Shown: positions 16,906 through 41,813 of the stretch, piece after piece
Layout of the letters: each line of letters starts with the position of its first letter
Position numbering within the stretch: position 1 is the first letter of the stretch
Source of the DNA: a plasmid
Reading direction: 5' to 3' (one strand)
Sequence record: NZ_CP128202.1
Length of the DNA stretch: 64,000 nucleotides
Notes under the pieces: generated by a model
Told to the model about the DNA's origin: nothing
Seen by the model: the letters and a program-made list of their open reading frames with translations, nothing else
Database searches by the model: none
Made by a program: the position numbers and the translations under genes

Positions 16906-16968
16906 CATAATCCTCTGTAGACCACACCAATAAATGGCTGCGGAGGTGGTTTACTTTCAGCTTGGAGC

Positions 16969-26873: not shown

Positions 26874-26987
26874 GCATAAGCGAATCCCTTAACATTATCA
26901 CCCGCCTGAACCGCATCAATGATGTCATTCATTTCCGGCGTAAGGTTGTGTTCTCCAATTGTTCGTTCTGAACTTTTTATTTCCATA
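26874..26987 (-). pseudogene. 5-prime stub (about 38 codons) of a P-loop helicase-like gene, truncated by the IS3 fragment
   Basis: [42 protein letters not shown] ends in a Walker A motif (GxAGxGK) at the position typical of RecD/TraA-type (AAA_30) helicases. The frame then runs into IS3 sequence. Confidence 0.4.
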
Positions 26988-27000
26988 TATCACCTGCCTT

Positions 27001-27561
27001 TTAACTTAGTTTTTCTTTATAGCCTTTTATCGATGCGGTTATTGGTATTACCCTCTCTTTGATTGGAATCGATTTTAATGGCTCATGAGAATGTTTTGAA
27101 GCAGCAAGCAGATGAAAGTGTGATTTCATCAAATTCTTAACCACGCTTCGATGAGAATAAAGAACATCTTCCATCTCTTCTATCATCTCCAATTCCCATT
27201 CACGAGCATGTTTGAACTGTGCGCGTTTGTATTTACCCTCCCTCGGTGTTGCAATGGCTTTGACTACGCGAATTGTTTTACTCCCACGCTTAACAAATTG
27301 AACCCTAATCCATCGGCATGTGAATGCAATGCCAGTAAATTCCAAACGAAACTCGTAATTCGTTGATTCAGTCCGTCTGCTGGCATCACCTCGACGGCTA
27401 AGCTCTCGCTCCGCCACCTTGCGCATCCAGATTGAATGCACAATCTTAGCTCCCTCGTATTCTCTGTCTATCTGTGCGTATATTGCCGCTTGTATTGCTG
27501 CAAATGACATCTTTAAACGATCTCCATTATGCTTAAAGTTGTTTTCAACAAATTTTACCAT
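27001..27561 (-). CDS. hypothetical basic protein (186 aa; start possibly the downstream Met MSFAAIQ)
   Basis: Intact ORF directly upstream of the truncated helicase stub. A perfect 22-bp palindrome lies in its promoter. No confident family assignment. Confidence 0.4.
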   Translation of the reverse strand: MVKFVENNFKHNGDRLKMSFAAIQAAIYAQIDREYEGAKIVHSIWMRKVAERELSRRGDASRRTESTNYEFRLEFTGIAFTCRWIRVQFVKRGSKTIRVVKAIATPREGKYKRAQFKHAREWELEMIEEMEDVLYSHRSVVKNLMKSHFHLLAASKHSHEPLKSIPIKERVIPITASIKGYKEKLS

Positions 27562-27575
27562 AACAAATGTAGTAA

Positions 27576-27597
27576 CAAAATGTAGTTACATTTTGTA
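27576..27597. promoter_or_regulatory. palindromic operator-like site upstream of the 186-aa gene
   Basis: caaaatgtagttacattttg is a perfect palindrome. A direct half-site aatgtagtaaca lies just upstream. AT-rich promoter context. Confidence 0.4.
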
Positions 27598-27970
27598 CTA
27601 ACAAGTTAAGGACAAAATAGCATGATTTTTTGTATTATAAGTCATAGGCGACCTTCGACTCGCTTGGTCGGATCGCCAGATGGGATGCAATGATCGCCAA
27701 ATCTGGCTTGGTGCTGGTAGTGATAGCTGTCCAAGATGAGGCGTTTTTCTGGTTGGCTACAGAGGTGATGTGTACTGGCAATTTAACATAATTACTTATA
27801 TCTTTGCGATTTTGGAATTATTTTTGATGTGGTAGGATTAATTTAATTCTAATTTATTAATGGATGGATATGTTTATGGAAGGTATAGTTGTGTTGGTTA
27901 TTATGTATTTTTGGATGCGATTTGTTTTTAAACTTATCATTCCTCGCTGTAATTCTTTTAGGAAGTTTAT

Positions 27971-28430
27971 TTGGTATTGTATGCTAGGGATTTTTTAAAA
28001 TTGAGGTGGAACATGAGTAAAATAATTCATATTTTTATTTGTATTTTTGCAGTGGTTGTGAATTTTACAACGGCTTTTGCAAGCACAAATCTTTTGAGTG
28101 ATGATGGTGATAAGTTGTTGGTCGAATCAATTGTGTCATCAACTTTTGGTAACTCGGATAACCTATCATCTATCAGTGACTACAATATTCATAACGCAAA
28201 AATAAAAGCGGCAGAATTTACAGGTGAAGTGAATATGTCGACTCCCGCACTAAGGTTGTGAACGGACGTATTTCTAAGCAACAGGTTAGAGTCATTTCTT
28301 CCAGTTATGTGCGACTCGTCTCATTGGATGAACGCAAAGCGGTAGATGATTTGGGTAATTTTACTCTGACCTCAATTGCTACGTTTGAGTTAAGAAAATC
28401 TGATGTCATGAATCATGATTAAAAGACTTA
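27971..28430 (+). pseudogene. secreted protein, paralog of the N-terminal domain of the 399-aa protein at 34238-35437; frameshifted
   Basis: Signal peptide MSKIIHIFICIFAVVVNFTTAFAS. The frame switches near 28228. The continuing frame reads EYVDSRTKVVNGRISKQQVRVISSSYVRLVSLDERKAVDD, which aligns with TYIESVLQVSNQTITKQQVRVLTAGFLEVLSREDKRSVGA of the 399-aa protein. Confidence 0.45.
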
Positions 28431-28520
28431 AAAATGAGGAAGATTTACTTGATAGAATTCAAAGTTTACAATCAAAAAATGATGAACTTATGTTGATTAT
28501 TGAACGTCTATCGTCTGGTG

Positions 28521-29681
28521 TTAATTTTGCTTTTCTAGCACTACCGGTTCGTACACTGCTTCTTCTACCGCTTGGTTTTCTGTTTCACCAAGATCGAAGC
28601 TGAAATCGTCATCGCTGAACGCGAAGTCTGATTCTGGCTCTTCACTGGTTTCAATCGCCGTCTGTTCAGCCGAGAGAACCGCATCACTGGTCACAGTGGT
28701 TTGGTCATCAATGGTTGAATCCCCAAGATCGAAGCTGAAATCATCATCGTTGAACGCGAAGTCTGATTCTGGCTCTTTCATTGGTTCCAACGGTCCCGCA
28801 TTCTGAGGTTCGGATTGAACGCTCGCCATTGCAGGTTGATTGGTTGATGCTTCTTGCAGACTCTTCATGAGAGTGAGCAATTTTTCCTTATTTGCCATAC
28901 GAAACAGTAATCCAGACAGGATGTTGGTTTCGTCAGTGGACAGCTTACCCGCAATCGGCATTTGCTCTTCGACCTTTTTGATTTCCTGAACAAGTCGAGA
29001 AAATCGGCCATTGAGAAACGCTAACCCTTCCACCTTTTCTCGCAATCCGACTAGGCCGTTTACGTTGGTGCGGTTGGGTGCAATCGCGTCTGTTAAGCTG
29101 GATAAAAGCTTATTCGCAGTTTTCAAAATGTCGTCATCAAGAGAATTGCTTAAACCATCGATCTCTTTGCCCATGCTGATGTCCACAGACTGAACCGCAG
29201 CTTGAGCCGATTGCACTTTGAACATTGAGTAGCTTGCTGAGATTTTGCTTTTGACTTCTTGTGCCGGTGTTAATGCGGCGCGAAGTTTTTGCTCATACTC
29301 AGGATACTTTTTAACCCATTCATCTTGGATTAAATCGTGTCGAGAACAATACGCGTCAGCTTCTTTTTCGTAGTCATGAACAATTTTGCTCAATCCTAAC
29401 GCCAAAGCATCGGCCTTGGAGGACGGTATCGCATAGCCACCCATAAATCGGATGCCTACACTCAGACACAAACGCTCCGCTTGACGTTTCAGGGTATTAA
29501 ATACCTTGAGGTCTTTGGGGTCAGTTGTGTATTTCGAACCTAAAGAGATGATCTCTTTCGGCGGGGTTTCCCCACGAAGAGATAAGTCGCTTTCTGCCAA
29601 CTTTTTCCGACCTGTCCAGGTTGAAAAACGTAAGTGAACGGCGACGACATCGTTTAGAACGTTGATGTTTGAATTGCTCAT
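28521..29681 (-). CDS. hypothetical protein with C-terminal tandem acidic repeats (386 aa)
   Basis: No signal peptide. Helical N-terminal two-thirds. C-terminus has two copies of EPESDFAF[NS]DDDFSFDLG separated by a T/S/Q linker. Last gene of the CobS-like ATPase cluster. Confidence 0.55.
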   Translation of the reverse strand: MSNSNINVLNDVVAVHLRFSTWTGRKKLAESDLSLRGETPPKEIISLGSKYTTDPKDLKVFNTLKRQAERLCLSVGIRFMGGYAIPSSKADALALGLSKIVHDYEKEADAYCSRHDLIQDEWVKKYPEYEQKLRAALTPAQEVKSKISASYSMFKVQSAQAAVQSVDISMGKEIDGLSNSLDDDILKTANKLLSSLTDAIAPNRTNVNGLVGLREKVEGLAFLNGRFSRLVQEIKKVEEQMPIAGKLSTDETNILSGLLFRMANKEKLLTLMKSLQEASTNQPAMASVQSEPQNAGPLEPMKEPESDFAFNDDDFSFDLGDSTIDDQTTVTSDAVLSAEQTAIETSEEPESDFAFSDDDFSFDLGETENQAVEEAVYEPVVLEKQN

Positions 29682-29825
29682 AATGGTATCTCCAATTTTT
29701 GATATAAAAAAAAGGACATACCATTACCCGCTAGGGCAAATGATATGCCCTATGGCGGTGTAGAAATGTAGATAAGTCGCGCTAAACGCTAGGACTTATC
29801 TTTCTTTTTCAGTGCTTTTTTGCGA

Positions 29826-29936
29826 GTTGTCTGTCGCACCAAGCGTTGATTTGAGGGGAATAAAGAGCCACTAAACTGACTATTAATCCACCAGCGATAA
29901 TCACAAATAAACCATTCATGATGATCTCCTTGTTTA
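29826..29936 (-). CDS. tiny single-TM peptide (36 aa)
   Basis: MNGLFVIIAGGLIVSLVALYSPQINAWCDRQLAKKH with a strong RBS (aggagatcatcATG). Not in the supplied ORF track, which only lists ORFs of 60 aa or more. Confidence 0.3.
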
Positions 29937-29952
29937 TGTTCTATGCCAAATA

Positions 29953-30198
29953 TTACTCTTGTTTTAACTTTTTCGCAAAAACAGTGAATACAATACCTGA
30001 CACGATTAGAGCGGCCATCTTCACATCGATACCCGTTTGGATCGCATAGACGTAGGAGCCAGTGTAACCAGCTATGCCTAAATTCCCCACATGAGTACCA
30101 ATTTCCTTCCGATGGCAAATTATCCAACCTGAACATTTCTTGATTTGTGCAACAAACCAAAGATAGGCAATCACATAATCGAACATGTATAACTCCAT
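29953..30198 (-). CDS. small two-TM membrane protein (81 aa)
   Basis: Hydrophobic segments FDYVIAYLWFVAQI and MAALIVSGIVFTVFA. Lies between the ATPase gene and the acidic-repeat gene. Confidence 0.4.
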   Translation of the reverse strand: MELYMFDYVIAYLWFVAQIKKCSGWIICHRKEIGTHVGNLGIAGYTGSYVYAIQTGIDVKMAALIVSGIVFTVFAKKLKQE

Positions 30199-30256
30199 AA
30201 ATTATTATGGAGTACCTACCCACACGGGATAGATACCCCGCGTGGGTTAAAGCTGC

Positions 30257-31210
30257 TTAGTTGTTGTTAAAATCAGCACCAAACAACGCTACAGCTAATG
30301 TTTGAATAGTTTCACGTTCTTCTTCTTCCGAGCAGCGGTTTAACAATGCACGATCAAGCGCGTAGCTTAATGCATTGTTTGCTCCTTGGAATCGTTGAGT
30401 GAGTATCGCCCAACGAATTAACGTGCGAGTTGAAAAGGTGATCGATAATTCTGAGTCACCTTGCTCCCCTTTGAAGATAGCGCGAACCTTATTAGCCAGC
30501 TCAATCATCTTCTTACGCAGCACTTTAGGAATGTTCGGTGCCAGTTTTTCCAGTACCGCCATTTCCGTATCTTCGCTGGCGTAATCTTCTTTGATCACCA
30601 CAAAGCGGTCCATGAACGCCATGTTTAGGCGGTTCACTCCCATGTAGTTGCCGTCACCACCAGATCCGTTTGAGTTCGATGTTGCAATCAAACGAAATGC
30701 GGGGTGAGGTCGTACAATTTCGCCGTTAAGCTGAGTGATCACGAGTGGCGCACCTTCCAAAATGGCATTCAGGTTTGCCAATTCCGCCGGATCAACCAAG
30801 TCGATCTCGTTCAGAATCAGTACATGCCCTCCGCGCATCGCAGTCGTCAGTACGCCATCCATCCAGACAGTATTGCCGTTCACTAATGTGTATTGGCCCA
30901 CTAAGTCCATGTACTCAGTCGAACCGCCACATGTATAGCTTTGGGCTGGATAATTTAATCTGGCTAGTACCTGCTCAACCGCTGACGTTTTACCGCAGCC
31001 GGTTGGACCGGTGATCATCAAGCCATCGCCAAATGAGCAATCCAAAAACGCCACGATGTCGCGTAACGTTTCCCGACGAAAGATGTAGTCTTTCTTGGCC
31101 GGAATATTTGGATGTCCACTTGGTGCAAAACCTTCAACCGTAACGTTTGTGCCAGGAAAACCGAACACATCCATTGGGTAGCTTTGCGGAGTTAGAGTTA
31201 GAGTAGTCAT
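30257..31210 (-). CDS. CobS-like AAA+ ATPase (MoxR/AAA_5 group)
   Basis: 317 aa. Walker A GPTGCGKT, Walker B VLILNEID, and the CobS-family segment IVRPHPAFRLIATSNSNGSGGDGNYMGVNRLNMAFMDRF (compare cobaltochelatase CobS VIRPHPAFRLFATANTVGLGD, recalled from memory). No vWA (CobT-like) gene is adjacent. Confidence 0.85.
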   Translation of the reverse strand: MTTLTLTPQSYPMDVFGFPGTNVTVEGFAPSGHPNIPAKKDYIFRRETLRDIVAFLDCSFGDGLMITGPTGCGKTSAVEQVLARLNYPAQSYTCGGSTEYMDLVGQYTLVNGNTVWMDGVLTTAMRGGHVLILNEIDLVDPAELANLNAILEGAPLVITQLNGEIVRPHPAFRLIATSNSNGSGGDGNYMGVNRLNMAFMDRFVVIKEDYASEDTEMAVLEKLAPNIPKVLRKKMIELANKVRAIFKGEQGDSELSITFSTRTLIRWAILTQRFQGANNALSYALDRALLNRCSEEEERETIQTLAVALFGADFNNN

Positions 31211-31266
31211 AATGTTGTCCTTAATTAATCAATAAAAAAGGCAACTTACGACTCCCCTAGTGGGCA

Positions 31267-32500
31267 AGGGCGGGATCGAACTTTAACCACTGAAAATAAA
31301 AGACTTTATTTTATTGGGAACTTTTCAAGGTAATCACGATCTGATCATGAAGTTAAAAATATGAGAAACTCGTGCATGATTATCATTGAGCAGCTAAAAA
31401 AAGTGAAAGATACCCGTTCGCATATCAACCAAGTGTATCCTGTTATGGAAGTGGCTTTCTTGGTCATAACCGCCATGATTTGTGGTCAAAATAAGTGGAC
31501 TGATATTAAGGATTTCGGCGAAGGAAATATCGAGTGGTTGCGTGAGTATCTCCCCTACGACAATGGTCTCCCCACTCGGCATAATATTGCCGCGATAATG
31601 AGAACTGTTGTACCAGAGACGCTCTTGGAAGCGATGGTAGGCTGGGTCAATTTGCACAGAGAAAAGCATGCTCAGCCCATAATCAGCGTTGATGGGAAGG
31701 TTCTAAAAGGAGCGAAAGCAAGCAAACAAGAACACCCTCTCTATATGGTTTCGGCATTTGACGTAGATGAAGGTTTGACTCTCACACATCAACCTTGTGA
31801 CGGTAAAGGTATGGAGCTAATAGCGATAAAAAACATGCTCGACGCTTTGGATGTCAGAGGGTGCTTATTAACTGCTGATGCGCTTCATTGTCAGGTTGAA
31901 ACACTGAATAAAGTGGTTGATAAAGGTGGTGATTTCTTAGTGCAAGTCAAACTGAATCAGCCAAGTTTGTTAGCAGAGATTGATGCGCAGTTCCAAGACT
32001 ATTGGGCTTTGCCAGAAGAACAACAGGAATCGTATATCACTGAAGATAAAGGGCATGGAAGAGAAGAGATTCGTGAGGTTTACGTGCTTCCTGCCTCCTT
32101 CAGCGAAGAACTCAAAGATAAGTGGAGTGTTGTAAAAAGCATTGTTGCGGTGGTAAGAGATAGAAGCGTCAAAGGGAAAGGAAGCTATGAAACATCGTAC
32201 TACATTTGCACAGACCATTTGTCTTTAGAGTTAGCCTCAAACGCAACAAGGAAACACTGGAACATCGAGAACCAGCAGCACTGGGCTTTGGACGTTATTT
32301 TCAAAGAAGACGAGCAGCGAATTTACGCTGGGGACTCAGCATTGAATATGGCTTGTTGTCACCGATTTGTGCAGAACCTCTTCAGGAAGTCAGAAGGGAG
32401 CGTGTCTGTACCAAGGAAGATGAATAAGGCTACGTGGGACAAAGATTATAGAGCAAAAGTTCTCTTTACATCAGCTTAACAAAGTACGTTCGCGCCCTTC
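31267..32500 (+). mobile_element. ISAs1-family insertion sequence
   Basis: 1234 bp. Imperfect IRs aagggcgggatcgaac and gttcgcgcccttc. 9-bp target duplication CTAGTGGGC at 31258-31266 and 32501-32509. It sits inside one of the conserved intergenic hairpin repeats between the exonuclease and ATPase genes. Confidence 0.85.
31361..32479 (+). CDS. ISAs1-family (H-repeat-type) transposase
   Basis: 372 aa. N-terminal KVKDTRSH...GEGNIEWLREYLPYDNGLPTRHNI and a DDE region typical of the ISAs1 family. Confidence 0.9.
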   Translation: MRNSCMIIIEQLKKVKDTRSHINQVYPVMEVAFLVITAMICGQNKWTDIKDFGEGNIEWLREYLPYDNGLPTRHNIAAIMRTVVPETLLEAMVGWVNLHREKHAQPIISVDGKVLKGAKASKQEHPLYMVSAFDVDEGLTLTHQPCDGKGMELIAIKNMLDALDVRGCLLTADALHCQVETLNKVVDKGGDFLVQVKLNQPSLLAEIDAQFQDYWALPEEQQESYITEDKGHGREEIREVYVLPASFSEELKDKWSVVKSIVAVVRDRSVKGKGSYETSYYICTDHLSLELASNATRKHWNIENQQHWALDVIFKEDEQRIYAGDSALNMACCHRFVQNLFRKSEGSVSVPRKMNKATWDKDYRAKVLFTSA

Positions 32501-32576
32501 CTAGTGGGCAGCTTTCAGTTGCCCGATAGGGTTGATATTCATTGAATTAGTCAATCGCTCGACTAATTCCCTCTTC

Positions 32577-33809
32577 TTAAAAATGCATGTTTCGTACAGA
32601 TTTTTCGAAGAAATTACTTGGTGACGTTGGGGTAGCGATCATTGGAATGACCTTGGCGGTTTCTGTCGGCTCAGGCTCAGTTTTCGGTTGAGTCTCTTCC
32701 GGCATTAACGCGCTTGGCGATTTCACCGTCATCACGTTTAACGATTCGGCTTGCACCGGTTCCGTTGAGTGTTCAGGTTGAACGTTCGCATTGTCGCTGG
32801 TTTGAACAGTCGGTGTGATGGTTTCTGGCTCATCAGTTACATTGACTAAGTAGTAAGACGACCCTTTCTTCGTGTGCTTAGCTAGTAACTCTGGTGGTAT
32901 CGCCACATTGAGATCCTTCGCCAGCTCATTAAGAACCGCTTGGTAGTCCACACTGCCATTTCGTTCCACTCGCGTAGCCCGAATACCACCTTTATCGAAT
33001 GTTTTGACATCACTAGGGATTTGCTCAGTGAAGTAACTTTCAAGCTGATTCACATCGGCCTTGACCGCATTCATTTTGCGTTCAATCTCACCTAGATACG
33101 CTTTTTTCTCTTTCAGTTGCTCCACTCGGCTTAGCCAGGTTGGATCAACTTGAGAAAGTGGCGTGTCGTACACAACGGTATCGCGGCCTTCCATCATTGG
33201 CGGTGGCGTCTTAGTTTGCACCAAGTTCCAGAACCACAATGCTTTTTGTTCCGCTTTTTGGATAAACGCATCGTCACGTTTAATGTTTACCGCAATTGAA
33301 CGTTTACCGCGCAAGTAAAAAAACAAACGACCTTGAGGGCTTCCGGCGCAGTTAAGTTGCCACTGCACTTGGGCAGCGTACATCTTGAACGTTGGCGCTT
33401 TGGATTGAAGTTCAACAAGTTCGTTGTAGATCTTTTCACAAGGACATTTGATTTCGAGCACTTCCCGAATGCCTTTAGAGATGGCTTGTAGGCCATCCAA
33501 AGACGCTTTGAACAGTGGATTATGGTCTGCTTCTACGCACACTGGCATATACACAATGCCGTATTGATCTTCCACGGCGCTTCGCGCTTCCGGCTCTTGC
33601 TCGACACCACGTTGAACGTGAAAGTTTTTAGACAGGTCATCTGGTTGTTTATAACCGACTAACTCTGCCCACAGTCCGTATGGGGTTTGATAAGGTGACA
33701 GGCCCATAATCACAGGGATCATGGAGGCTGTAATGCCCGTTTTCCGCCACGCAAACCATTTTTCACTACGTTGTACTAAGTCAACAATAGGCATAAGTGC
33801 CTCCTTCAT
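32577..33809 (-). CDS. YqaJ-type viral recombinase-domain exonuclease (lambda-Exo-like) with C-terminal extension
   Basis: N-terminal 300 aa carry the YqaJ pattern (RSEKWFAWRKTGITASMIPVIMGLSPYQTPYGLW ... ASLDGLQ ... EIKCP). An additional low-complexity C-terminal tail of about 100 aa. Confidence 0.8.
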   Translation of the reverse strand: MKEALMPIVDLVQRSEKWFAWRKTGITASMIPVIMGLSPYQTPYGLWAELVGYKQPDDLSKNFHVQRGVEQEPEARSAVEDQYGIVYMPVCVEADHNPLFKASLDGLQAISKGIREVLEIKCPCEKIYNELVELQSKAPTFKMYAAQVQWQLNCAGSPQGRLFFYLRGKRSIAVNIKRDDAFIQKAEQKALWFWNLVQTKTPPPMMEGRDTVVYDTPLSQVDPTWLSRVEQLKEKKAYLGEIERKMNAVKADVNQLESYFTEQIPSDVKTFDKGGIRATRVERNGSVDYQAVLNELAKDLNVAIPPELLAKHTKKGSSYYLVNVTDEPETITPTVQTSDNANVQPEHSTEPVQAESLNVMTVKSPSALMPEETQPKTEPEPTETAKVIPMIATPTSPSNFFEKSVRNMHF

Positions 33810-33825
33810 ATTGTGTTCAATAAAA

Positions 33826-33867
33826 AGGGCGCACTATCCCCTACGGGCAGTGTCGCCCGTTAGGGTA
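33826..33867. repeat. exemplar of a conserved intergenic hairpin-repeat family in the 28-42 kb island
   Basis: atcccctacgggcagtgtcgcccgttagggta. Related copies at 29718-29755 (tacccgctagggcaaatgatatgccctatggcgg), 30217-30250 (tacccacacgggatagataccccgcgtgggtta), 31250-31266 plus 32501-32540 (split by ISAs1: ctcccctagtgggc / agctttcagttgcccgataggg), 41199-41236 (tacccctacgggctttgtgtcccgtttgggg) and 41712-41748 (ggcccgtaagggatagtttatccccgttgggc). Confidence 0.6.
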
Positions 33868-33891
33868 GATGGATAATTAGGGTACTTTCCT

Positions 33892-34245
33892 TTATAGAGA
33901 AACGGTCACGCAGTATTCACGCGAGCCATTGTGGTTCTGGTAATCCGAGCTCACCGTTTTTAATTGCGCCACTGTGTGCTGACTGCTCAACGTCACCTGT
34001 TCGGTGAGAACATCTTGGGTTTGGGCTTGGCCCTTGCCTTCGGTTGTGATGCTTTTCAGTTCCGTTCTGGCATTCACGGTGGCCCCAAGCTCATGAGAGA
34101 GTTGCCCCTTTGCCAATGCCTTTGCGGTGATTTCATCAACCACCGGATTGCCAGTGTCCGGCACACAGGCTGAGCCGGTGATCGTCTTTGAGGCCGCGAA
34201 CTCACTCACCACCAGTAAGCTGACCAACAACAGATATTTATTCAT
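33892..34245 (-). CDS. small secreted protein (117 aa from MNKYLL)
   Basis: Signal peptide MNKYLLLVSLLVVSEFAAS. Its ATG overlaps the stop of the upstream gene (tATGAATAA), indicating translational coupling. Confidence 0.5.
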   Translation of the reverse strand: MNKYLLLVSLLVVSEFAASKTITGSACVPDTGNPVVDEITAKALAKGQLSHELGATVNARTELKSITTEGKGQAQTQDVLTEQVTLSSQHTVAQLKTVSSDYQNHNGSREYCVTVSL

Positions 34246-35437
34246 ATTTCCACTCGCTCGATTCTTTTTCCGGCACCACCACCACACGCGCATCCAGTGA
34301 ACTGATGCCCTGCAGTTCCGCTTGAGTCACGTTCTTGATGATGACCGGATTGCGATAACGGGAACGATGGTCAGCATCTAACATGCGGTTATCTTTGGAG
34401 TCATTGGAGAATTGAAGCGCGAAGTTGCTCCCTGCGAAGAAATCGCTTCGGCCACTGATTGGCAAATACCCCACTTTGTTCGCCGCTTTAATCTCAATAG
34501 CGACTGTATGACCGGACAGGTAATCCAGCAATTCGCCGCTGTAGGGCTTTAATTGTTTATTGCCACGGTTATTGTACGAAGGGAACTCAATGGTGTAGGG
34601 CGGTGCATGTCGGTCTTTCTCTTTCAGTACCAGATAATTCGACATGACGCTGCGCACCGGTTTCATCGGGACATTCCAACGCACCGGAACGTGAATGTTG
34701 TACGTTCCGTCAGTGTTCTTTTTGAACTCTGGATTGCCAAGCGAAATCTTTGTTTGGGTTTTTAAGTAGCCAAATACATCTCGGTTCACGGCCTCTTTCG
34801 CCAGGTCGTAGTCTTGTCCATCCAGCATCGCCAGTTGGAAAAGAGTACCCTGCTCGAACACTTTCTTTGTGGCCGCACGATTGCTATCGAGCTTTGCCAA
34901 CACCGCGTCACGCTCAGCCAGCAAATCCGTTCGTGCGCCCTCGTTAATCTTGCGGGTTAACTCAAGCACTTCGCCGCGCAGACGTTGATTGTCTTTCTCA
35001 AGTGCGTCCATCTTGGCCTTGCGTTCTGGATCGCTTTTCAGCTTTGCCAACCCATCACGAATGGACGCTTTGGACAGCTTTATTTTAGCGTAGGTATCGA
35101 GCACGAGACTGCCATTGGCTCCTACTGAACGCTTATCTTCACGGCTTAACACCTCAAGAAACCCTGCCGTTAACACGCGCACTTGTTGTTTGGTGATGGT
35201 TTGGTTTGACACCTGCAGCACCGATTCAATGTAGGTTCCGGCGTAGTCGGAAGCCGATTTCTTGGCTTGCTCTAGCGTGATTTCTCTGGCACTGGTTAAT
35301 GTGTCGTTATCACCAAGCACATAACGTTCCGTCACGTTCAGCGTGATGTGGTCCTGATTCTCGGAATCCAGCGATACGGCGGCATGAGTAGAGAAAGACA
35401 GCCCAACCAGTAGGGCCAGTAATGTTCGATTCATCAT
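34238..35437 (-). CDS. secreted coiled-coil protein (399 aa)
   Basis: Signal peptide MMNRTLLALLVGLSFSTHAAVS. Central coiled-coil (KAKMDALEKDNQRLRGEVLELTRK). Its N-terminal domain is paralogous to 27971-28430. Confidence 0.6.
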   Translation of the reverse strand: MMNRTLLALLVGLSFSTHAAVSLDSENQDHITLNVTERYVLGDNDTLTSAREITLEQAKKSASDYAGTYIESVLQVSNQTITKQQVRVLTAGFLEVLSREDKRSVGANGSLVLDTYAKIKLSKASIRDGLAKLKSDPERKAKMDALEKDNQRLRGEVLELTRKINEGARTDLLAERDAVLAKLDSNRAATKKVFEQGTLFQLAMLDGQDYDLAKEAVNRDVFGYLKTQTKISLGNPEFKKNTDGTYNIHVPVRWNVPMKPVRSVMSNYLVLKEKDRHAPPYTIEFPSYNNRGNKQLKPYSGELLDYLSGHTVAIEIKAANKVGYLPISGRSDFFAGSNFALQFSNDSKDNRMLDADHRSRYRNPVIIKNVTQAELQGISSLDARVVVVPEKESSEWKYE

Positions 35438-35448
35438 TTCGTCCTTTG

Positions 35449-35832
35449 TTAGTCAGCCCGAAACCAGTGAGAATCCAACCCCATGCTGGCGCACGCGGTA
35501 CAAATCAACTCGTTTCCGTTGTTCGTGATGATTATCTCCAAATCTGGCCGGACAACGCCGACGATATCTCGGTTACGCATCGTGACCACGATTTTGTTCC
35601 CCCTGACCAGAAACGGCTTATCCATGCTGCCAAATTTGCTTGAGAGTGTTGCGGTATCGTGAGTGAATTGAAGCGTAGCGTTTTGTTTCGACTCAGAGTA
35701 TTTGCCCTTGATAAATTCTTTATTGAAGATGTCTGACACATCAGCAGGAGGATAATGAGCGGTATCAGAATCACACCCTGATACCGCCAATGCGCTCACC
35801 AAACACCATTTACTCAGGCTTGATGAACTCAT
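35449..35832 (-). CDS. small lipoprotein (about 127 aa, start at MSSSSLSKWCLVSALAVSGC)
   Basis: Lipobox LAVSGC. Overlaps the end of the upstream gene. The supplied ORF 35449-35985 starts earlier, in a region shared with the 295-aa gene. Confidence 0.5.
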   Translation of the reverse strand: MSSSSLSKWCLVSALAVSGCDSDTAHYPPADVSDIFNKEFIKGKYSESKQNATLQFTHDTATLSSKFGSMDKPFLVRGNKIVVTMRNRDIVGVVRPDLEIIITNNGNELICTACASMGLDSHWFRAD

Positions 35833-36697
35833 ATTTTTTGCCTTGCGTGTAAATAGCGGGTAAGACTTCCGCATAGTCGGTATATATTTTATTGTCGTAT
35901 TCAGTTTGAGGCATTGATGATGTGTAGACATAAAACCCTTTGGGTAAATGCTGAGTAATGCCTGTATAGAATTCCGTAGTATCAATATTCTTGCCGCTCT
36001 CGACCGTGAATATTAAATGCGTTGGGATCATTATTAATCTATCTTTTATAGTGGATTTTTTCACCCCATAGGTATAATAGCTTCCCGCATTTCCCTCTAG
36101 CGATTGGTCGGTTTTAGTTAGCACCCCCTCCTTGGGCGTATTTATTTGAAAGCCCCCCATAAGGTAGTCCACTCCACCATGATTGAGGTAAAAAAGCTTG
36201 CCTCGCTCTCCCACGGGTTGCAATTTCACTTCCCCATATTTGCTTAATGCTTCAAGTGTCGCGGCATTGATTGTATCGATGATGTATTGCTGCGCATCCA
36301 GTTCCGAAGAAAACGGGGTAGCGTCTACTTCAATGATCCACTCTGTAGCGCCAGCAGCGTGATCGCGGCTGGCAATGTTGGCGACTGCCCCCCCTGCTAT
36401 ATCAATCGCACCCGTGAGATCCAGTGTCAGGAGTTTTAAGCCTCCAATTAACAAAGAGGGATTACCGCCACTTCTTGATCGGCCTACGGCTTGAGTAATT
36501 TCGGCTTCCTCTTCTCTGGTGAAGTCGCGGAGTGGGCTATCATTGCGCATCAGGATAGTTTGATTGGCTACGTTATAGGCGTAACTGTGTTCGTTGCTGA
36601 ATGGCATCGGTTCAACAGGCTTTGGGGTCGATTTACAACCCACTAAGGTCAAACCTAATCCAGCGGCAATTAAAATGGGTTTTATGTATCCTTTCAT
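35810..36697 (-). CDS. lipoprotein (295 aa)
   Basis: MKGYIKPILIAAGLGLTLVGC is a signal peptide plus lipobox. No recognisable domain. Confidence 0.6.
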   Translation of the reverse strand: MKGYIKPILIAAGLGLTLVGCKSTPKPVEPMPFSNEHSYAYNVANQTILMRNDSPLRDFTREEEAEITQAVGRSRSGGNPSLLIGGLKLLTLDLTGAIDIAGGAVANIASRDHAAGATEWIIEVDATPFSSELDAQQYIIDTINAATLEALSKYGEVKLQPVGERGKLFYLNHGGVDYLMGGFQINTPKEGVLTKTDQSLEGNAGSYYTYGVKKSTIKDRLIMIPTHLIFTVESGKNIDTTEFYTGITQHLPKGFYVYTSSMPQTEYDNKIYTDYAEVLPAIYTQGKKYEFIKPE

Positions 36698-36763
36698 TTT
36701 CTCGTTCTCATTTTTTGCTGATATAACACTACGGTATCACCGATTATTTTTTTCCAAAATGCA

Positions 36764-39700
36764 TCATTGGCTGCGACTCCACGCATCCTCATACGCATCG
36801 CGGCGAACTTCGTCAGCATCGATATTTTCCATACGCTCTCGATTGGCCTCTAGGACATTATTTCTGTCTGTTCCGCCTTGCTGAGTGTTCAAATTGGACC
36901 CTTTGCCCGTGAGGGAATCAATATTCACATTCACCATGTCGGTGTAATTCCCCGTACTGATGAGTATGCCAATCCATTCATCCAGATTCACTTCATCCCA
37001 ATCGACTTTATCCAAATCTTGAATACCGACACCTGTGCAGTTCGGTTTTTTCGCGGTTCCCCAATTTAAATTCATCTGTGACTGAGCATAAATTTGCTCC
37101 ATCATGATACGAGATAATGGAGAATCAAATACGCAGTAAGACTGGCGTTTTTCAATACAGGAACCAAGCACCTCTGTCTTACAATAGGAGCCAATTTTAT
37201 GCGTCGATAACAGCTCTCGTTTCATAGCTAAATCCAGCTCTTCCTCTTCGCATTCGTAGATAACATTGACCAGCAAATTAAACACGACATACGCCAGATA
37301 TGCGTAATACACATACATCAAGGCTTGTCCGGCGGCGGCCATTTCAGCACTTGCACCAAGAACCGCTTCACCAGCCGCACTTGTACCCACTTCTTGGAAA
37401 AACATTTTCGCTACCTCTGGACCAAAGGTGTCTATCAAAAACTGGTTGGTGTATTGCATCATTTGTTGTGCCACTGCGCTCATGAGGCCCTTGTTTGCAC
37501 CATCTGTTCCCATTTGCGCCACAATATCCGCCGGTGATATAAATTCACCTTGTACCGCCGACCAAGCAGATTGAGCCGTGGCACTTCCCCACGTTGATGC
37601 GGTTTCCCACACACCAGGATAGTTTTCCAACCCCATGACCTGACCCGTTAGCGCATCCATCTGCATCATTTTGGTCGTGAGCGAAATGTAATCAGCAAGC
37701 GTGACCGCTACAGGGGATTCACAGCAATTCTGCATCCCCCCCACCGCAATTTTGCATTCGGACGCAGTACCTTTGAAGAGTTCGCACGTAACGTTGGTAT
37801 CTCCCCCGCTACTGGTTGTGACCGACGAGGTGGACATGGTACTCATTGACATCGGCTGAGCAGTAGAACTTGCTGACGCAAGGCCCATGAGCTGCTGTCT
37901 GCCCACTGTCGTCAACGCAATGTTGTTCTGTTGTTCTTCAGCCATAGAAAGGAATTGCTCGGCCACGTACTGTTGCATCGTTTCTTGCGTCAGTTTGGCT
38001 TCCTCTGACCCCTGCAACTCGCTGCTTGCGTTCGCTTTGGGAATTAACGTATCCAGCATGTGCTCGAACGGCGAAAGAACCATTGCAATCACTTCTTGTG
38101 TTTGGGTCGGGTTTAGTGGTTCATTGTTCAATTCGAACTGTGATCGAACATTAGCCAACGGGGAAATACTACTGGATTCGCAACGGTTTTCTTCTGCATT
38201 CCAAATAGGGTAACTTGTAGGACAGCTAATGCTAGCTGGTTCTTCGCGTATGCAACGTCCAGTTGTAGCATTGTAATATGTACCTTCCTCGCTACACACC
38301 CATTCAGGAGGACTAACAGAGCCAGCTTTGCACTTACCAGTAGCACTATCATAAGAGCCTATCGCGCACACTGGATCCTTTGTAGTGTTGACATTAGTAC
38401 AAATCTCATAGGTATAGTTCCAATCTTGAGTCATAATACACCAGCCAGCAAAATGGCCAGTTCCATTATAATTACTTAACGTTCCTCTGCCTCTATTTAT
38501 GATATTTGAGCTAGGACCCCAACTAGAGTAATTTAACGTTCTACCGCAACCAGCACTACTACCAGAGTAATATTTCCACTGTTCTCGTTGTTTACCTCTC
38601 CAAAACGCACCACTACCTAAATAAGCGTTGCTTGGTTTAATCGTCGCTGGATCATCACCACAAAAATCATAGTAAGTGTTGTGGCAAAGACCATCGAGAA
38701 CCCTCGTTTCAGTCCTTGGTGTATTAAGCCCTGAATGCTCACCATTACTAATGACAAAGGCATCTTTATCGAAATAACAACCTTCCTTAATACCTACACA
38801 TTGCCCATTACTAAGTGTTAAACCACTGTCGCATTGAGCATCCGTATATGTAATACCGTTGCAAAGCCCAGTTGCAGCATCGTAAGTTTCATTTGCATTA
38901 TTGCATTTGGGTACTGCCGGAATATCAAGCAAACACTTATCATCCAAAACACTCCAAGGATCACCACCTTCAATCAACGGCACACCTTCAGGACACGTTG
39001 GTGTCGGCGGTATTTCACAATACCCCGTCTTGGGATTGAGCGTGTGATCAGGACTTGGGCAACCACTCGGAATGACTGGTGATTCTGCATTGGTACAGAC
39101 CTCATAAAAGGTATCAGTCGCCAGTTTTTTCTTTGCCTCACCACATGTATAAGTCACCCCATTTTTCTTCACGGGTATGCAGGTAGGAACGCTGGCATCA
39201 TCCACCACCACTTGATTTCCCACCAGCACTTGAATGCCATTGCGCGAGCTCGCGGCATAAAAATCGTTGTCAGAATAGGTACAGCCTGTTGGTTTCAAAC
39301 ATTGGTTAGTTTGTTTGTTGTAAACGAACCCGTCAGCACAACTTGGAACGGGAATGTATTGGTCCGGCGGTGCATCTGCATCGTATGGGGATTCGGGAAT
39401 GCCTTGGCAGGTCATGTCAGCTTTTGCGTATTTCAGCATTTCCAGATAGGCATTCACTTTGCCAAAATCTTCATTCGCGCCATCACGCGCAGGGCTGTAA
39501 CAATTCTCGCCAACACACTGAAGTTTGCCGTTACAGCGCAATACCTGCTCTTCTTTCGGCTGTCCCGTTGAAGCCGTGAAGCCACAATCGTAGGTGTCTT
39601 CTTGGACATAACAGTGGCCGGAGCTGCCTTCGGCCCCTTCCACACACTCACTCTTGATATAAGAACACGTAGGGTTCTCTTCGTATTTTTTACACTGATT

Positions 39701-41185
39701 GCGATCTACTGTGTCATTATCAAAACAGCGCTCTACCCCATTGAGATCCTTTGAGCAAAATTGGCCTTCGTTAAACCCACAGTTGGAAGTCACTTCCACT
39801 TTTCGACAAAACGGACTGATGCCTAAACTAGCAAATGGGTTCGATTTGAAATTAGACTCACAGACTTTCACCCCGTTCATCACCGTACAACCGGCTGCAT
39901 CAAGGCTTGGCATGTCGGTACACTGAAACGAGCCGGTACAGTAACCGTCATCGATCTGTTTTTTTACTTGGAAAGCTTTGTCGATGTTTTCTTGCGTTGT
40001 CCAATTGTCACCGTACACGAGATCGTTCATGTTGTAGTACACCAACAAAGAGGAATAGCCTTCCCCTTCCCCCGCTACAGAGGTGCGAGTTTTAAACGTT
40101 ATCTCACCATATTCAGGCACACTGGTGAATGAACTGGTGACGTTAATGTTAGGTCGGGTGTCCCAGGAAGTGCTTAACTCACATTTCGTCCCGACTTCGG
40201 GCGGAAATTCACCGTTCGGGCCGTTGTAGATTTTCACCCCGTTCAAATACACTTGGTGATAATCATCGAACTTCGAGCGATCCAGAACGGCATAAGTAAT
40301 TTTATCCGGCTTCAACACTTCAACGGACATGCTCTCTTCATAAATCGTACACCAGCCTGGCCAGTAATTGTTGCCTACTGTGCCGATCCAAACCTGTGTG
40401 CAGCCATTTCCGCAAGAAACAAGGTTCACCGGACCGCTTTTATGTCTCAAAATGCCGACTTTGTATTCGTGGCTGATGGTAAATGTCTCTTCGACAACCG
40501 GTAGTTTTTCGCACGTTTCGTATTTCGGCACATGGTAATCCTTGCCTGACGAAATGAGCTCAGTCGTGAGTGTGCAGTTGGCAAAGTCTTTGGTAATGTC
40601 GGTGAGGTTGTCGAGTACCTGATCGGTGTTCTTCCACATCGGATCGTTGCTTAAATCCGGCTTTTGAGTAGCAAAAGACCTCTTCAGTAGATGATAAGCT
40701 CGTTCACCGCTTGAATCGGCGGTTTCGAGTGTCTTTTGTTCGTATTTATCTTTCGCTAACTGGCCTTGGATAAGGGTTTTGGAATCACTGCCATAGGTGT
40801 CGGTATCAGCGGGGATGTAATCATTGTCGCGCTGACCCGTGAGCTCCTGTTTCGTCATAATGGCTTTGCCATTGACCATCAGCGAACCATCTGACGAAAA
40901 GGTTGGATTAGAGTGTGCGTTTTTGACAGGTTGTTTAACCTGTGTTTTTTGCACGTTTGCATTGGGTTGTTTCGCCAAAACCTTAAAGGTGAAGCGAATC
41001 AAGCAGAACGCAAGATAGGCAACCAACGAAACCGTTGCCAGTAGGATAAATGCTGCCACCATCCGAGCTGGATTCTCTGCTTGGTAAGCAACAAAGGCAC
41101 CAATAAAACACAAAGCAAAAACCGTGAAGTTTTTGAATGATGTTTTTGGTAGAAGTGTTGATAGGGTTTGAGTTGAAGTGTTCAT
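36764..41185 (-). CDS. giant cysteine-rich membrane-anchored protein with a TraN-like C-terminal region (1473 aa)
   Basis: Two N-terminal TM helices, then more than 1000 aa rich in Cys/Gly/Asn/Thr. The C-terminal segment KIGSYCKTEVLGSCIEKRQSYCVFDSPLSRIMMEQIYAQSQMNLNWGTAKKPNCTGVGIQDLDKVDWDEVNLDEW resembles the conserved C-terminus of F-type TraN mating-pair stabilisation proteins (recalled from memory, not checked). Confidence 0.5.
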   Translation of the reverse strand: MNTSTQTLSTLLPKTSFKNFTVFALCFIGAFVAYQAENPARMVAAFILLATVSLVAYLAFCLIRFTFKVLAKQPNANVQKTQVKQPVKNAHSNPTFSSDGSLMVNGKAIMTKQELTGQRDNDYIPADTDTYGSDSKTLIQGQLAKDKYEQKTLETADSSGERAYHLLKRSFATQKPDLSNDPMWKNTDQVLDNLTDITKDFANCTLTTELISSGKDYHVPKYETCEKLPVVEETFTISHEYKVGILRHKSGPVNLVSCGNGCTQVWIGTVGNNYWPGWCTIYEESMSVEVLKPDKITYAVLDRSKFDDYHQVYLNGVKIYNGPNGEFPPEVGTKCELSTSWDTRPNINVTSSFTSVPEYGEITFKTRTSVAGEGEGYSSLLVYYNMNDLVYGDNWTTQENIDKAFQVKKQIDDGYCTGSFQCTDMPSLDAAGCTVMNGVKVCESNFKSNPFASLGISPFCRKVEVTSNCGFNEGQFCSKDLNGVERCFDNDTVDRNQCKKYEENPTCSYIKSECVEGAEGSSGHCYVQEDTYDCGFTASTGQPKEEQVLRCNGKLQCVGENCYSPARDGANEDFGKVNAYLEMLKYAKADMTCQGIPESPYDADAPPDQYIPVPSCADGFVYNKQTNQCLKPTGCTYSDNDFYAASSRNGIQVLVGNQVVVDDASVPTCIPVKKNGVTYTCGEAKKKLATDTFYEVCTNAESPVIPSGCPSPDHTLNPKTGYCEIPPTPTCPEGVPLIEGGDPWSVLDDKCLLDIPAVPKCNNANETYDAATGLCNGITYTDAQCDSGLTLSNGQCVGIKEGCYFDKDAFVISNGEHSGLNTPRTETRVLDGLCHNTYYDFCGDDPATIKPSNAYLGSGAFWRGKQREQWKYYSGSSAGCGRTLNYSSWGPSSNIINRGRGTLSNYNGTGHFAGWCIMTQDWNYTYEICTNVNTTKDPVCAIGSYDSATGKCKAGSVSPPEWVCSEEGTYYNATTGRCIREEPASISCPTSYPIWNAEENRCESSSISPLANVRSQFELNNEPLNPTQTQEVIAMVLSPFEHMLDTLIPKANASSELQGSEEAKLTQETMQQYVAEQFLSMAEEQQNNIALTTVGRQQLMGLASASSTAQPMSMSTMSTSSVTTSSGGDTNVTCELFKGTASECKIAVGGMQNCCESPVAVTLADYISLTTKMMQMDALTGQVMGLENYPGVWETASTWGSATAQSAWSAVQGEFISPADIVAQMGTDGANKGLMSAVAQQMMQYTNQFLIDTFGPEVAKMFFQEVGTSAAGEAVLGASAEMAAAGQALMYVYYAYLAYVVFNLLVNVIYECEEEELDLAMKRELLSTHKIGSYCKTEVLGSCIEKRQSYCVFDSPLSRIMMEQIYAQSQMNLNWGTAKKPNCTGVGIQDLDKVDWDEVNLDEWIGILISTGNYTDMVNVNIDSLTGKGSNLNTQQGGTDRNNVLEANRERMENIDADEVRRDAYEDAWSRSQ

Positions 41186-41279
41186 AATGTGTCTCCATTA
41201 GACAAAAAAATGGGACACATTACCCCTACGGGCTTTGTGTCCCGTTTGGGGTTTGAATTAATATCGACCTATTTATCTA

Positions 41280-41396
41280 GATGATACTTTTTGCTGTAGT
41301 GCTTGACGACTTGCCATCCGACAATACCAAGTATTGTCACAAAGCCAATACACATACCAAGATAGATTAGTGCGCCAGTAGTCATATGATTCTCCT
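41280..41396 (-). CDS. tiny TM peptide (38 aa)
   Basis: MTTGALIYLGMCIGFVTILGIVGWQVVKHYSKKYHLDK. Not in the supplied ORF track, which only lists ORFs of 60 aa or more. Confidence 0.25.
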
Positions 41397-41435
41397 TTTC
41401 GATAAGTATAACAAAGTGGCGTTTTTTAAACCAAA

Positions 41436-41669
41436 TTATTCCTCTCCATCGCTGTTTTGAACCATATCACCTATCACCAAGCCCACATCAATAATCACAT
41501 AGGCGAGCATAAATGCTATACCGACTGCAATTGTGATGACGTTCATTGGGATATTGTCTGCTGTGCTAACTAAGTTGATTCCTCCTGTGACCATTATACC
41601 TGCGCCTATTGCTAGGAACACATTGGCAAACGCTCGAAGAAATGCTTTTTTTATAATATTCATACGCAT
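41436..41669 (-). CDS. small two-TM membrane protein (77 aa)
   Basis: Hydrophobic segments ANVFLAIGAGIMVTG and VITIAVGIAFMLAYVIIDV. Confidence 0.35.
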   Translation of the reverse strand: MRMNIIKKAFLRAFANVFLAIGAGIMVTGGINLVSTADNIPMNVITIAVGIAFMLAYVIIDVGLVIGDMVQNSDGEE

Positions 41670-41813
41670 TACCTCATTTGTTATTTTGAATATTTAATAA
41701 CAGAGATAAACGTATGGCCCGTAAGGGATAGTTTATCCCCGTTGGGCTGAACACATCGTCAAAGTAAAAACTTATCGGATGGTAAAGAGTGACCGTTATT
41801 GGTCAATTGAAAA

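Follow-up and report, generated by a model that had tools for sequence, protein, structure and literature searches.

The 64,000 nt stretch of DNA analysed here (sequence record NZ_CP128202.1; hereafter the window, to which all positions refer) is a non-conjugative Vibrio plasmid of the Rep3 family and is not chromosomal. Between positions 26,874 and 41,813 it contains a block of genes related to those of conjugative plasmids, and we propose, at a probability of roughly 80%, that this block is a mosaic and progressively decaying IncA/C-like Vibrio conjugative backbone, whose function is most likely mobilisation of its carrier in trans together with orphan surface exclusion. Two parts of it, the mobI gene with an adjacent candidate transfer origin (oriT) and the gene for an Sfx-like lipoprotein, appear to be the only self-contained functional units left. 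That the block began as a remnant of a conjugative plasmid, with edges associated with insertion sequences (IS), is almost certain.

Origin and mosaic structure of the block

Collinear and nearly identical DNA is present in intact conjugative plasmids, namely the 103-kb V. fluvialis plasmid pIDH5335-2 (NZ_AP028131.1; 85–99.9% identity) and a 79-kb V. cholerae contig (AAXONQ010000015.1, here L149; 94% nucleotide identity to window positions 26,850–28,527). pIDH5335-2 has all of the genes of the block plus those that the block has lost: genes for a MobH relaxase, TraD and a DUF4400 (TraJ-like) protein, traL, traE, traK, traB, traV, traA, traC, trhF, an S26 peptidase gene, traW, traU, traN, traF, traH and traG, together with mobI followed by a full helicase gene, the series hyp77-hyp155-bet-exo-AAA-hyp-DUF3150, and a gene for a VWA protein. 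The V. cholerae contig has traFHG, mobI, an intact helicase gene and an intact copy of a 387-aa gene that is broken in the window. The two represent the parental type, IncA/C-like with a MOBH relaxase, an F-type secretion system of type IV (T4SS) and MobI. The backbone of the IncA plasmid pRA1 also includes traN, sfx, AAA, bet, exo, DUF3150 and VWA genes, and the Vibrio plasmids are therefore placed in a distant branch of the IncA/C-like plasmids. A first, sequence-only reading of this DNA had proposed descent from a conjugative or phage-related element that lost its T4SS, relaxase and integrase; conjugative descent is borne out by the two intact parents, which retain relaxase, coupling protein and T4SS and against which the losses could be mapped, while the window and the annotation of complete sibling plasmids contain no relaxase, coupling protein or T4SS gene except a 5'-truncated traN. 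A phage origin was rejected because YqaJ/Bet/Exo is here part of a conjugative-plasmid backbone, as in pRA1, and an origin from an SXT/R391 integrative and conjugative element because there is no int or att and the context is a plasmid.

The alignments describe a mosaic and not the remnant of one deletion, because the segments are 85–94%, 99.9% and 97–99% identical to different parental plasmids (Table 1) and the segment with traN was imported later. At least five rearrangements separate the block from its parents: the helicase gene is cut, its neighbour is frameshifted and truncated, the DUF3150 gene is clipped, an ISAs1-family element is inserted, and bet is replaced by the 5'-truncated traN with four genes for exported proteins. 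The counterpart of this last segment (33,881–40,907) is part of the tra operon in pIDH5335-2, and in the window it sits where pIDH5335-2 and the sibling plasmid of FDAARGOS_777 have bet and the 3' part of hyp155. The earlier suggestion that the remainder was removed by IS-mediated deletion thus stands for the outer edges, both of which are IS-associated, but not for the block as a whole. Comparison of these plasmids shows that IS-associated breaks define both edges, that the relaxase and coupling protein, every T4SS gene but traN, the VWA partner and bet were lost through internal deletions, and that the 5'-truncated traN entered the bet locus together with its four downstream exported-protein genes; a later 486-bp deletion at a microhomology fused traN in frame to the first 93 codons of an unrelated membrane-protein gene, and ISAs1 inserted after the fusion.

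The carrier is a separate replicon. Positions 26,000–42,900 are 99.2% identical across 90% of their length to the 85.6-kb circular V. furnissii plasmid pVFBJ05, and the flanks are at least 99% identical to pVFBJ05 and to the 76-kb V. furnissii plasmids CP040989 and CP064380; plasmids of this Rep3 type circulate in V. furnissii, V. cholerae and V. fluvialis, and those of the pVFBJ05 type are typed as non-mobilizable by MOB-suite for want of a relaxase. The complete circular siblings likewise encode Rep3, ParAB and toxin-antitoxin proteins. The window has its own replication and partition genes and also encodes a Phd/RelE toxin-antitoxin pair and serine recombinases (resolvases). Its Rep and ParAB proteins are only 26–32% identical to their counterparts in pIDH5335-2 (32% between Rep and RepB), and none of the 23 contigs with this exact Rep that were read has T4SS genes beside it; the Rep3 plasmid is therefore a replicon of its own that holds pieces of a conjugative backbone. 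These observations also speak against the alternative that it was once a self-transmissible member of the family and lost its tra genes in place rather than capturing pieces. Such decay in situ would fit the parental relative orientation of the remnant segments and the IS elements that mark the breaks, but we consider it improbable, as the divergence of the segments from any one parent is uneven, the traN segment is demonstrably a later import, and V. fluvialis plasmid pIDH5335-1 has the Rep3 backbone but lacks the block, and shares its strain with the conjugative pIDH5335-2. In this 370-kb plasmid (NZ_AP028130.1) the Rep3 backbone, corresponding to window positions 42,000–64,000 joined to 5,621–20,087, is embedded at about 236–272 kb of the record and lacks the genes for EAL and MCP proteins as well as the block; the strain provides a natural case of co-residence of the two plasmid types.

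Base composition adds nothing to this assignment. The block had been described as AT-rich, but its GC content (0.449) does not differ from that of the window (0.4505) or the flanks (0.449 and 0.454), 500-bp intervals have a mean GC of 0.452 inside the block and 0.451 outside (Mann-Whitney p=0.71), and values at third codon positions (GC3) overlap. AT-rich DNA is confined to two intergenic stretches, 26,874–28,520 in the mobI/oriT area (GC 0.372) and 41,186–41,813 (0.387). A uniform profile is what the sequence-only reading had itself named as telling against it, and the compositional evidence fails, although the evidence from homology still supports the core idea. A compositionally distinct genomic island was rejected on the same grounds, as neither GC nor GC3 deviates from the flanks.

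Both edges are IS junctions without target duplication, as had been recognised from the sequence, and represent breakpoints rather than simple insertions. The IS3 fragment at the left edge is a 242-nt inverted copy (99%) of positions 15,004–15,245 and overlaps the start of helicase homology by 13 bp; at the right edge homology to pIDH5335-2 ends exactly at 41,815 and does not resume past the IS5 copy, around which no 4- or 9-bp target duplication was found. A composite transposon or other IS-bounded unit was rejected because the ends carry different elements, a 242-bp IS3 fragment and an IS5-family element, and there is no duplication. The window has three full IS5/ISVa2-like copies (5,616–6,674, 41,814–42,867 and 54,309–55,367; mutually 92–96% identical) and a partial one (63,201–63,729), and target-site duplications are missing from all three full copies, which suggests that each took part in recombination or adjacent deletions.

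Table 1. Features of the block and its edges, the segments that compose it, and the replication and partition genes of the carrier plasmid
Feature	Positions	Strand	Remarks
IS3-family 3'-terminal fragment	26,621–26,862	-	Left block edge; rve_2/rve_3 C-terminus on open reading frame (ORF) 26,656–26,928
Segment with helicase stub, mobI, oriT and pseudogene	26,850–28,527		85% identical to pIDH5335-2, 94% to V. cholerae L149
UvrD/HerA-type helicase, first 46 codons	26,849–26,986	-	Other ~957 codons gone
mobI, intact	27,001–27,510	-	169-aa basic oriT-adaptor protein; PF19456 MobI, 62.7 bits (cutoff 26.6); pI 9.99
oriT-like region	27,511–27,640		Directly upstream of mobI; overlaps probable mobI promoter
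Invariant 16-nt core GTTACTACATTTGTTA	27,561–27,576	-	Within oriT-like region
Proximal inverted repeat (9–10 bp)	27,575–27,596		Ends just before core, 2-nt overlap
Distal imperfect repeat	27,612–27,633		Further palindromic unit upstream
Pseudogene of 387-aa exported-protein gene	28,013–28,527	+	Frameshifted, 3'-truncated; flanks oriT in intact plasmids
Deletion junction	28,527		4.6 kb gone relative to FDAARGOS_777 plasmid, including last 11 DUF3150 codons
DUF3150, hyp and AAA segment	28,527–31,266		99.9% identical to pIDH5335-2
DUF3150 gene	28,521–29,681	-	PF11348, 205.8 bits; last 11 codons missing relative to 396-aa parental protein
Small conserved hypothetical gene (77–81 aa)	29,953–30,198	-	100% identical to pIDH5335-2 copy; no Pfam match
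CobS/MoxR-like AAA+ ATPase, intact	30,257–31,210	-	AAA_5 and CbbQ_C
ISAs1-family IS	31,267–32,499	+	DDE_Tnp_1_assoc and DDE_Tnp_1; 56 bp upstream of ATPase gene
exo segment	32,500–33,880		99.9% identical to pIDH5335-2
exo (YqaJ/lambda-exonuclease family), intact	32,577–33,794	-	PF09588 and TIGR03033
7-kb segment: three exported-protein genes, sfx-like gene, traN from codon 57	33,881–40,907		97–99.5% identical to pIDH5335-2
117-aa secreted protein	33,892–34,245	-	Signal peptide; imported with traN
399-aa secreted protein	34,238–35,437	-	Signal peptide; imported with traN
127-aa lipoprotein	35,449–35,832	-	Lipobox; imported with traN
sfx-like gene	35,810–36,697	-	295-aa outer-membrane-type lipoprotein; lipobox LVGC; begins MKGYIKPILIAAGLGLTLVGC
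Chimeric 1473-aa ORF	36,764–41,185	-	hyp155 codons 1–93 (40,908–41,185) fused in frame to traN (36,764–40,912) without first 56 codons
First 93 hyp155 codons, then hyp77	40,908–41,815		99.8% identical to pIDH5335-2
hyp77, 77-aa membrane protein with two transmembrane segments	41,436–41,669	-	100% identical to pIDH5335-2; first gene of parental hyp77-hyp155-bet-exo operon
IS5/ISVa2-like element	41,814–42,867	+	Right block edge; DDE_Tnp_1_5 and DDE_Tnp_1
Rep3 initiator	45,622–46,698		Window's own replicon
ParAB	55,662–57,991		Window's own partition genes

The mobI gene and a candidate origin of transfer

The MobI protein of the window shares 94% identity with its counterpart in the intact tra plasmid of V. 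cholerae and 70% with the one in pIDH5335-2, and an identical protein is encoded in many V. cholerae isolates and in V. furnissii. Comparison of the DNA directly upstream in seven lineages, whose MobI proteins are 44–94% identical, reveals that the 16-nt core is the same in all of them, and that the arms of the inverted repeat beside it vary yet stay complementary, with compensatory changes in five of nine pairs. In the alignment 87% of cells are paired, against 33–48% when the partner columns are slid, and the covariation score was reached in none of 500 shuffles; both palindromic units of even the 94%-identical V. cholerae plasmid have undergone a concerted A-to-C and T-to-G change. The argument relies on this covariation and not on folding energy, the single-stranded fold of the oriT strand giving only z = -1.8. 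An invariant core beside variable but complementary arms is the signature expected of a relaxase-recognised core next to adaptor-specific binding sites, and we infer, rather than regard as proven, that this is an oriT; the mobI promoter probably takes up part of the conserved stretch as well. Sites predicted by a sigma-70 promoter scan were fewer than in shuffled sequence, and those of a terminator scan only slightly more numerous, so that both were uninformative.

Searches beyond the Vibrio plasmids returned little. A pattern derived from the MobI alignment matched no relatives in species-representative genomes, and a scan of the same genomes for an exact 21-nt version of the core gave one match, in a contig of a metagenome-assembled Bacteroidaceae genome, which was treated as chance since it lacks the flanking inverted-repeat architecture (its reading frame was unchecked). 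An 18-mer scan of metagenomes yielded mostly chance matches, with a MobI homologue encoded at only one of 120 loci.

In IncA/C plasmids and in the island MGIVchHai6 the oriT lies directly upstream of mobI (PMC5587640, PMC7449626), and cloned fragments with oriT and mobI are mobilised by a helper that has a TraI matching the MobI (PMC5587640, PMC7449626, PMC13635750). MobI binds oriT and recruits TraI through a C-terminal MobI-binding domain (PMC13635750); mobI and oriT suffice for mobilisation in trans in the IncA/C, SXT and MGIVchHai6 systems (PMC7449626, PMC13635750), and a foreign oriT-mobI fragment, in the construct pmobAQU1, can depress transfer of the helper (PMC13635750). By analogy, a MobI dimer would bind the palindromic repeats of the window and draw in the MOBH relaxase encoded by a helper plasmid in the same cell, the helper relaxase would nick at the invariant core, and the coupling protein and T4SS of the helper would export the plasmid, which would thus be mobilisable in trans or would at least titrate the helper relaxase. 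The segment had been described as immobilised for want of an integrase or att site; this is doubtful, as the segment sits on a plasmid and still has both mobI and an oriT-like site, the pair that is sufficient in related systems. We consider the chances about even that the plasmid can be mobilised in trans by related helper plasmids.

Several observations weigh against this interpretation. The conserved 16-mer could belong to a promoter or operator of mobI and not to a nic region; 10 of 169 MobI residues and the repeat arms are different in the closest intact helper, and the MobI of pIDH5335-2 differs by 30%; the survey of identical MobI proteins was ascertained on MobI itself; three siblings (L009, L152 and L159) lack the mobI region in the stretches available, so that retention is not universal; and no conjugative plasmid is seen alongside in those V. 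furnissii hosts that have been sequenced (PMC11027346). The last two would be expected if the whole block, mobI-oriT and sfx included, were neutral wreckage that neither mobilises nor excludes and in which these two units are intact only because they are short and the events recent. The 99.9% identity to parental plasmids, which implies recent events, and the variable truncation of exo, the AAA gene and DUF3150 among siblings that have lost different parts would fit as well. We nonetheless think this explanation unlikely, if by no means far-fetched. In one sibling (L157) the remnant has been reduced to mobI, oriT and an 82-aa fragment next to a resolvase gene; identical mobI genes are spread across many V. 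cholerae and V. furnissii isolates; an exchange of the sfx and TraN-tip segment after the fusion, described below, indicates continuing contact with conjugative relatives; and oriT-mobI fragments alone are experimentally sufficient in the related systems (PMC7449626, PMC13635750).

Decayed genes, the traN fusion and the Sfx-like lipoprotein

The genes that had been named from the sequence alone (a helicase start, a small basic protein with palindromes, which is MobI, a CobS-like ATPase, a YqaJ exonuclease and a TraN-like ORF of 1473 aa) were each identified by profiles or homology; an ISAs1-family element at 31,267–32,499 had been overlooked. The further claim that all of the genes are intact is not upheld, as five of about 14 parental genes are truncated, frameshifted, fused or deleted. 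The helicase stub corresponds to residues 1–46 of the 1003-aa pIDH5335-2 helicase (95.7% identity by tblastn; the full-length protein was assigned by its Pfam domains), of which the FDAARGOS_777 sibling keeps 227 aa. The neighbouring 387-aa gene, intact in L149 and in a further contig (L150), has a frameshift at codon ~71 and is cut at codon ~171, as seen when the pIDH5335-2 protein is aligned by tblastn in two frames. The ATPase matches the CobS model TIGR01650 at 105 bits, below the family cutoff, and its VWA partner gene, present in pIDH5335-2 and pRA1, is absent from the window. The gene for Bet (TIGR01913, 355 aa), which adjoins exo in pIDH5335-2 and FDAARGOS_777, is likewise absent, with the traN segment in its place, and the Lambda Red-like Bet/Exo module is thus reduced to exo. 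The ISAs1 element is flanked by an 11-bp direct repeat (cctagtgggca; 31,256–31,266 and 32,500–32,510), is missing from the FDAARGOS_777, pIDH5335-2 and V. cholerae L009 copies, and on this comparison is a recent simple insertion.

Siblings decay in other ways. Plasmids of the FDAARGOS_777 type keep bet and have no traN segment, other sibling contigs have truncated exo (323–364 aa) or AAA genes (121 aa) or a truncated or deleted DUF3150 gene, and some are without the block past the resolvase gene. We therefore depart from the sequence-only reading where it took intact genes as a hint of selection for their function, since the genes are not all intact, partners such as bet and VWA are missing, and the siblings show further and different decay. 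An immobilised remnant whose genes are all maintained by host selection, for recombination, for the ATPase or for a TraN adhesin, could point to the long ORFs of TraN, exo, AAA and DUF3150; it is nevertheless very improbable, as the helicase is down to 46 codons, its neighbour is frameshifted, DUF3150 is clipped, siblings truncate exo, AAA or DUF3150 or do without any traN segment, and the TraN ORF, itself a fusion, has no signal peptide and is broken in a V. cholerae sibling. exo without bet, and the AAA ATPase and DUF3150 genes without VWA, are probably relics.

The 1473-aa ORF is a chimera. Its TraN part scores 729.5 bits against NF011458 (cutoff 603), matches PF06986 and has 60 Cys residues. 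Native TraN of pIDH5335-2 starts with a typical Sec signal peptide (MLEERLTTSWWGKAIAWCLLVTTQFMMMHIAYA/QDD) that is absent from the window ORF, in which 93 residues identical to hyp155, with hydrophobic transmembrane-like segments, precede TraN from "PTFSSDGS..."; distant members of the plasmid family carry hyp155 as a separate gene. The V. cholerae sibling PDNJ01000039.1 (L009) represents the pre-fusion state, with a complete hyp155, the first 218 nt of bet, and an out-of-frame traN that has the same breakpoint as in the window and an internal deletion of ~195 aa that removes most of the central domain. The 5' end and signal peptide of traN were therefore lost before the fusion, and the window and pVFBJ05 have an additional 486-bp deletion, at a TCTAA microhomology, that restores a long frame. 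As the signal peptide is missing, the chimera is probably non-functional, and the long ORF is best read as a relic.

It could be supposed instead that the fusion works like the TraN of SGI1 (PMC11493245, PMC4207636), replacing the TraN of a helper and so changing the choice of partner or evading surface exclusion; two sibling plasmids have the frame open throughout its 1473 codons, and a swapped hypervariable domain lies beside a matching sfx allele. This we consider the least credible of the alternatives, because the Sec signal peptide has been replaced by an inner-membrane-type N-terminus with two transmembrane segments, the pre-fusion state in V. cholerae is a promoterless, out-of-frame fragment with an internal deletion, an in-frame product arises by chance in one of three cases, and the swapped part owes its intactness to the functional donor alleles from which it came. 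The hypervariable central domain (38,156–38,953; residues ~745–1010) is only 6–54% identical between TraN alleles that are otherwise 96–100% identical, and there is a second short variable patch at residues ~1229–1278. The window and pVFBJ05 have an identical fusion junction and different sfx/TraN-tip segments; this segment was therefore exchanged by recombination after the fusion, which in turn indicates continued contact with conjugative relatives.

The Sfx-like lipoprotein is encoded 66 bp downstream of the traN-derived ORF and co-directionally with it, as in the intact pIDH5335-2. A family profile of 27 sequences matches pRA1 Sfx end to end in hhalign (probability 97.2%, E 4.8e-11, 252 columns), and BLASTP gives 23% identity (E 1e-4); the lengths are similar (295 aa, and ~286 aa for IncA/C Sfx) and both have a lipoprotein signal peptide. 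The allele shares only 53% identity with its counterpart in pVFBJ05 and 46% with the one in pIDH5335-2, despite flanks of 97–99.8% identity; hypervariability between near-identical plasmids is a property of sfx as well as of the TraN central domain. In IncA/C plasmids Sfx acts at the outer membrane as the surface-exclusion factor, with specificity set by the TraN of the donor, and orphan sfx copies occur on mobilisable islands (PMC11493245). By analogy the lipoprotein would, in a recipient, weaken mating pairs with donors that have a matching TraN; orphan surface exclusion of this kind is possible, although we give it somewhat less than even odds. Against it, expression of sfx is uncertain, because the IS5 element has removed the upstream element of the hyp77 operon that holds sfx and the promoter scan is uninformative.

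This upstream element belongs to a set of near-identical intergenic repeats of ~160 bp that turned up in a k-mer scan of pIDH5335-2 aimed at an AcaCD-like activator box. Four copies (~87,868, 79,235, 73,657 and 68,490) are each located directly upstream of an operon and contain GTCGGGCGAGAATCGCC and the palindrome GTTTGTTCATATTGAACAGAC; they may be regulatory or leading-region elements. The copy upstream of hyp77 is replaced by IS5 in the window, which keeps only its last ~12 bp (41,802–41,813). No FlhC/FlhD (AcaCD)-like regulator was found by Pfam among candidate pIDH5335-2 ORFs.

The three genes downstream of sfx, for proteins of 117, 399 and 127 aa, are 86–99.7% identical to genes downstream of traN in pIDH5335-2, and their products have no relatives in Pfam, NCBIfam or PDB; PDB sequence searches with the 399-aa protein and with the Sfx-like family gave nothing meaningful. 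The 399-aa protein has a 24%-identical paralogue in the 387-aa protein beside oriT in the intact plasmids, the same gene that is a pseudogene in the window (28,013–28,527), and Pfam and PDB contain no relatives of this exported-protein family.

Outside the block, the 242-nt IS3 ends at 15,004–15,245 and 26,621–26,862 form an inverted pair (99%) that brackets 11.4 kb with Tn3 pieces and genes for a GAF-PAS-GGDEF-EAL protein (21,330–24,623) and a PAS-MCP chemoreceptor (24,716–26,269). These two genes are 98.5% identical to those of an Alteromonas plasmid and are therefore regarded as a separately mobile cargo module. A 300-nt direct repeat (16,495–16,794 and 16,946–17,245; 91% identity, 451 bp apart) lies beside Tn3-family transposase fragments.

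Known systems and the mobility of the plasmids

The block shares with IncA/C plasmids such as pRA1 a mobI with oriT directly upstream, an sfx homologue beside traN, exo, a CobS-like AAA gene and DUF3150, and its intact Vibrio relatives add the MOBH relaxase, TraD, DUF4400/TraJ and the F-type T4SS. The relationship is distant, however: identity to the pRA1 proteins is ~27% for MobI (over 62 aa) and 23% for Sfx, the oriT sequence is unrelated to the pRA1 repeats, TraN is ~1400 aa in the Vibrio family and 912 aa in pRA1, and sfx and traN are convergent in pRA1 but co-directional in the window. The window also lacks the relaxase, coupling protein and T4SS, and an AcaCD-type regulator was not identified among the candidate pIDH5335-2 ORFs. 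Both intact relatives, pIDH5335-2 and AAXONQ010000015.1, differ from the window in having complete transfer machinery, bet, VWA, an intact helicase and another replicon (RepB).

A functional parallel is offered by the islands MGIVchHai6 and IEAveTha1 and by pmobAQU1, a laboratory construct in which oriT-mobI was cloned in a non-mobilisable vector (PMC13635750). All are relaxase-less, have a MobI-family adaptor with a private, abutting oriT (PMC7449626, PMC11493245, PMC13635750), and depend on the MOBH TraI, TraD and T4SS of a helper, as the module in the window would; islands of the IEAveTha1 type also have an orphan sfx (PMC11493245). The carrier described here differs from the islands in being an autonomously replicating Rep3 plasmid without int or xis, and its module, with pseudogenes on its flanks, is visibly left over from a conjugative backbone and does not have the form of a streamlined hitcher. 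No activator-responsive promoters turned up. SGI1 provides a precedent for a traN homologue (TraN_S) on a non-self-transmissible element, but the SGI1 protein is complete, exported and expressed from an AcaCD promoter, whereas the window copy is a fusion without signal peptide and promoter. The block thus joins known kinds, decayed IncA/C-like backbones and relaxase-less hitchers that combine mobI/oriT with an orphan sfx, and is otherwise ordinary plasmid mosaicism.

More speculatively, and with doubt outweighing confidence, the Rep3 plasmids found in V. furnissii, V. cholerae and V. fluvialis, several with multidrug-resistance islands, may be plasmid counterparts of the MGIVchHai6 and IEAveTha1 hitchers. 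They would move between species with a MOBH relaxase and T4SS supplied by IncA/C-like plasmids from a little-known Vibrio branch, through a private specificity of MobI and inverted repeats, and an orphan TraN-tip/Sfx cassette, swappable by recombination, would decide which conjugative plasmids enter the host. The comparison defines, in silico, the oriT architecture of the Vibrio MobI/MOBH plasmid branch and extends the Sfx surface-exclusion family to it, a hypervariable Sfx being paired there with a hypervariable TraN central domain. Mobility typing of the pIDH5335-2 type of Vibrio plasmid is unreliable; the MOB-suite label of pIDH5335-2 itself in PLSDB typing is non-mobilizable despite an annotated MobH relaxase and a full F-type T4SS, and its record is given as linear. 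The main value of these findings lies in judging the mobility of resistance plasmids in clinical Vibrio. Sibling plasmids in clinical V. furnissii and V. cholerae have resistance islands with floR, sul2, strAB, tetA and dfr (PMC11027346), and if the mobI-oriT module works, the presence of a related conjugative plasmid would be enough to make such plasmids transferable, and the mobility of these siblings would have been underestimated.

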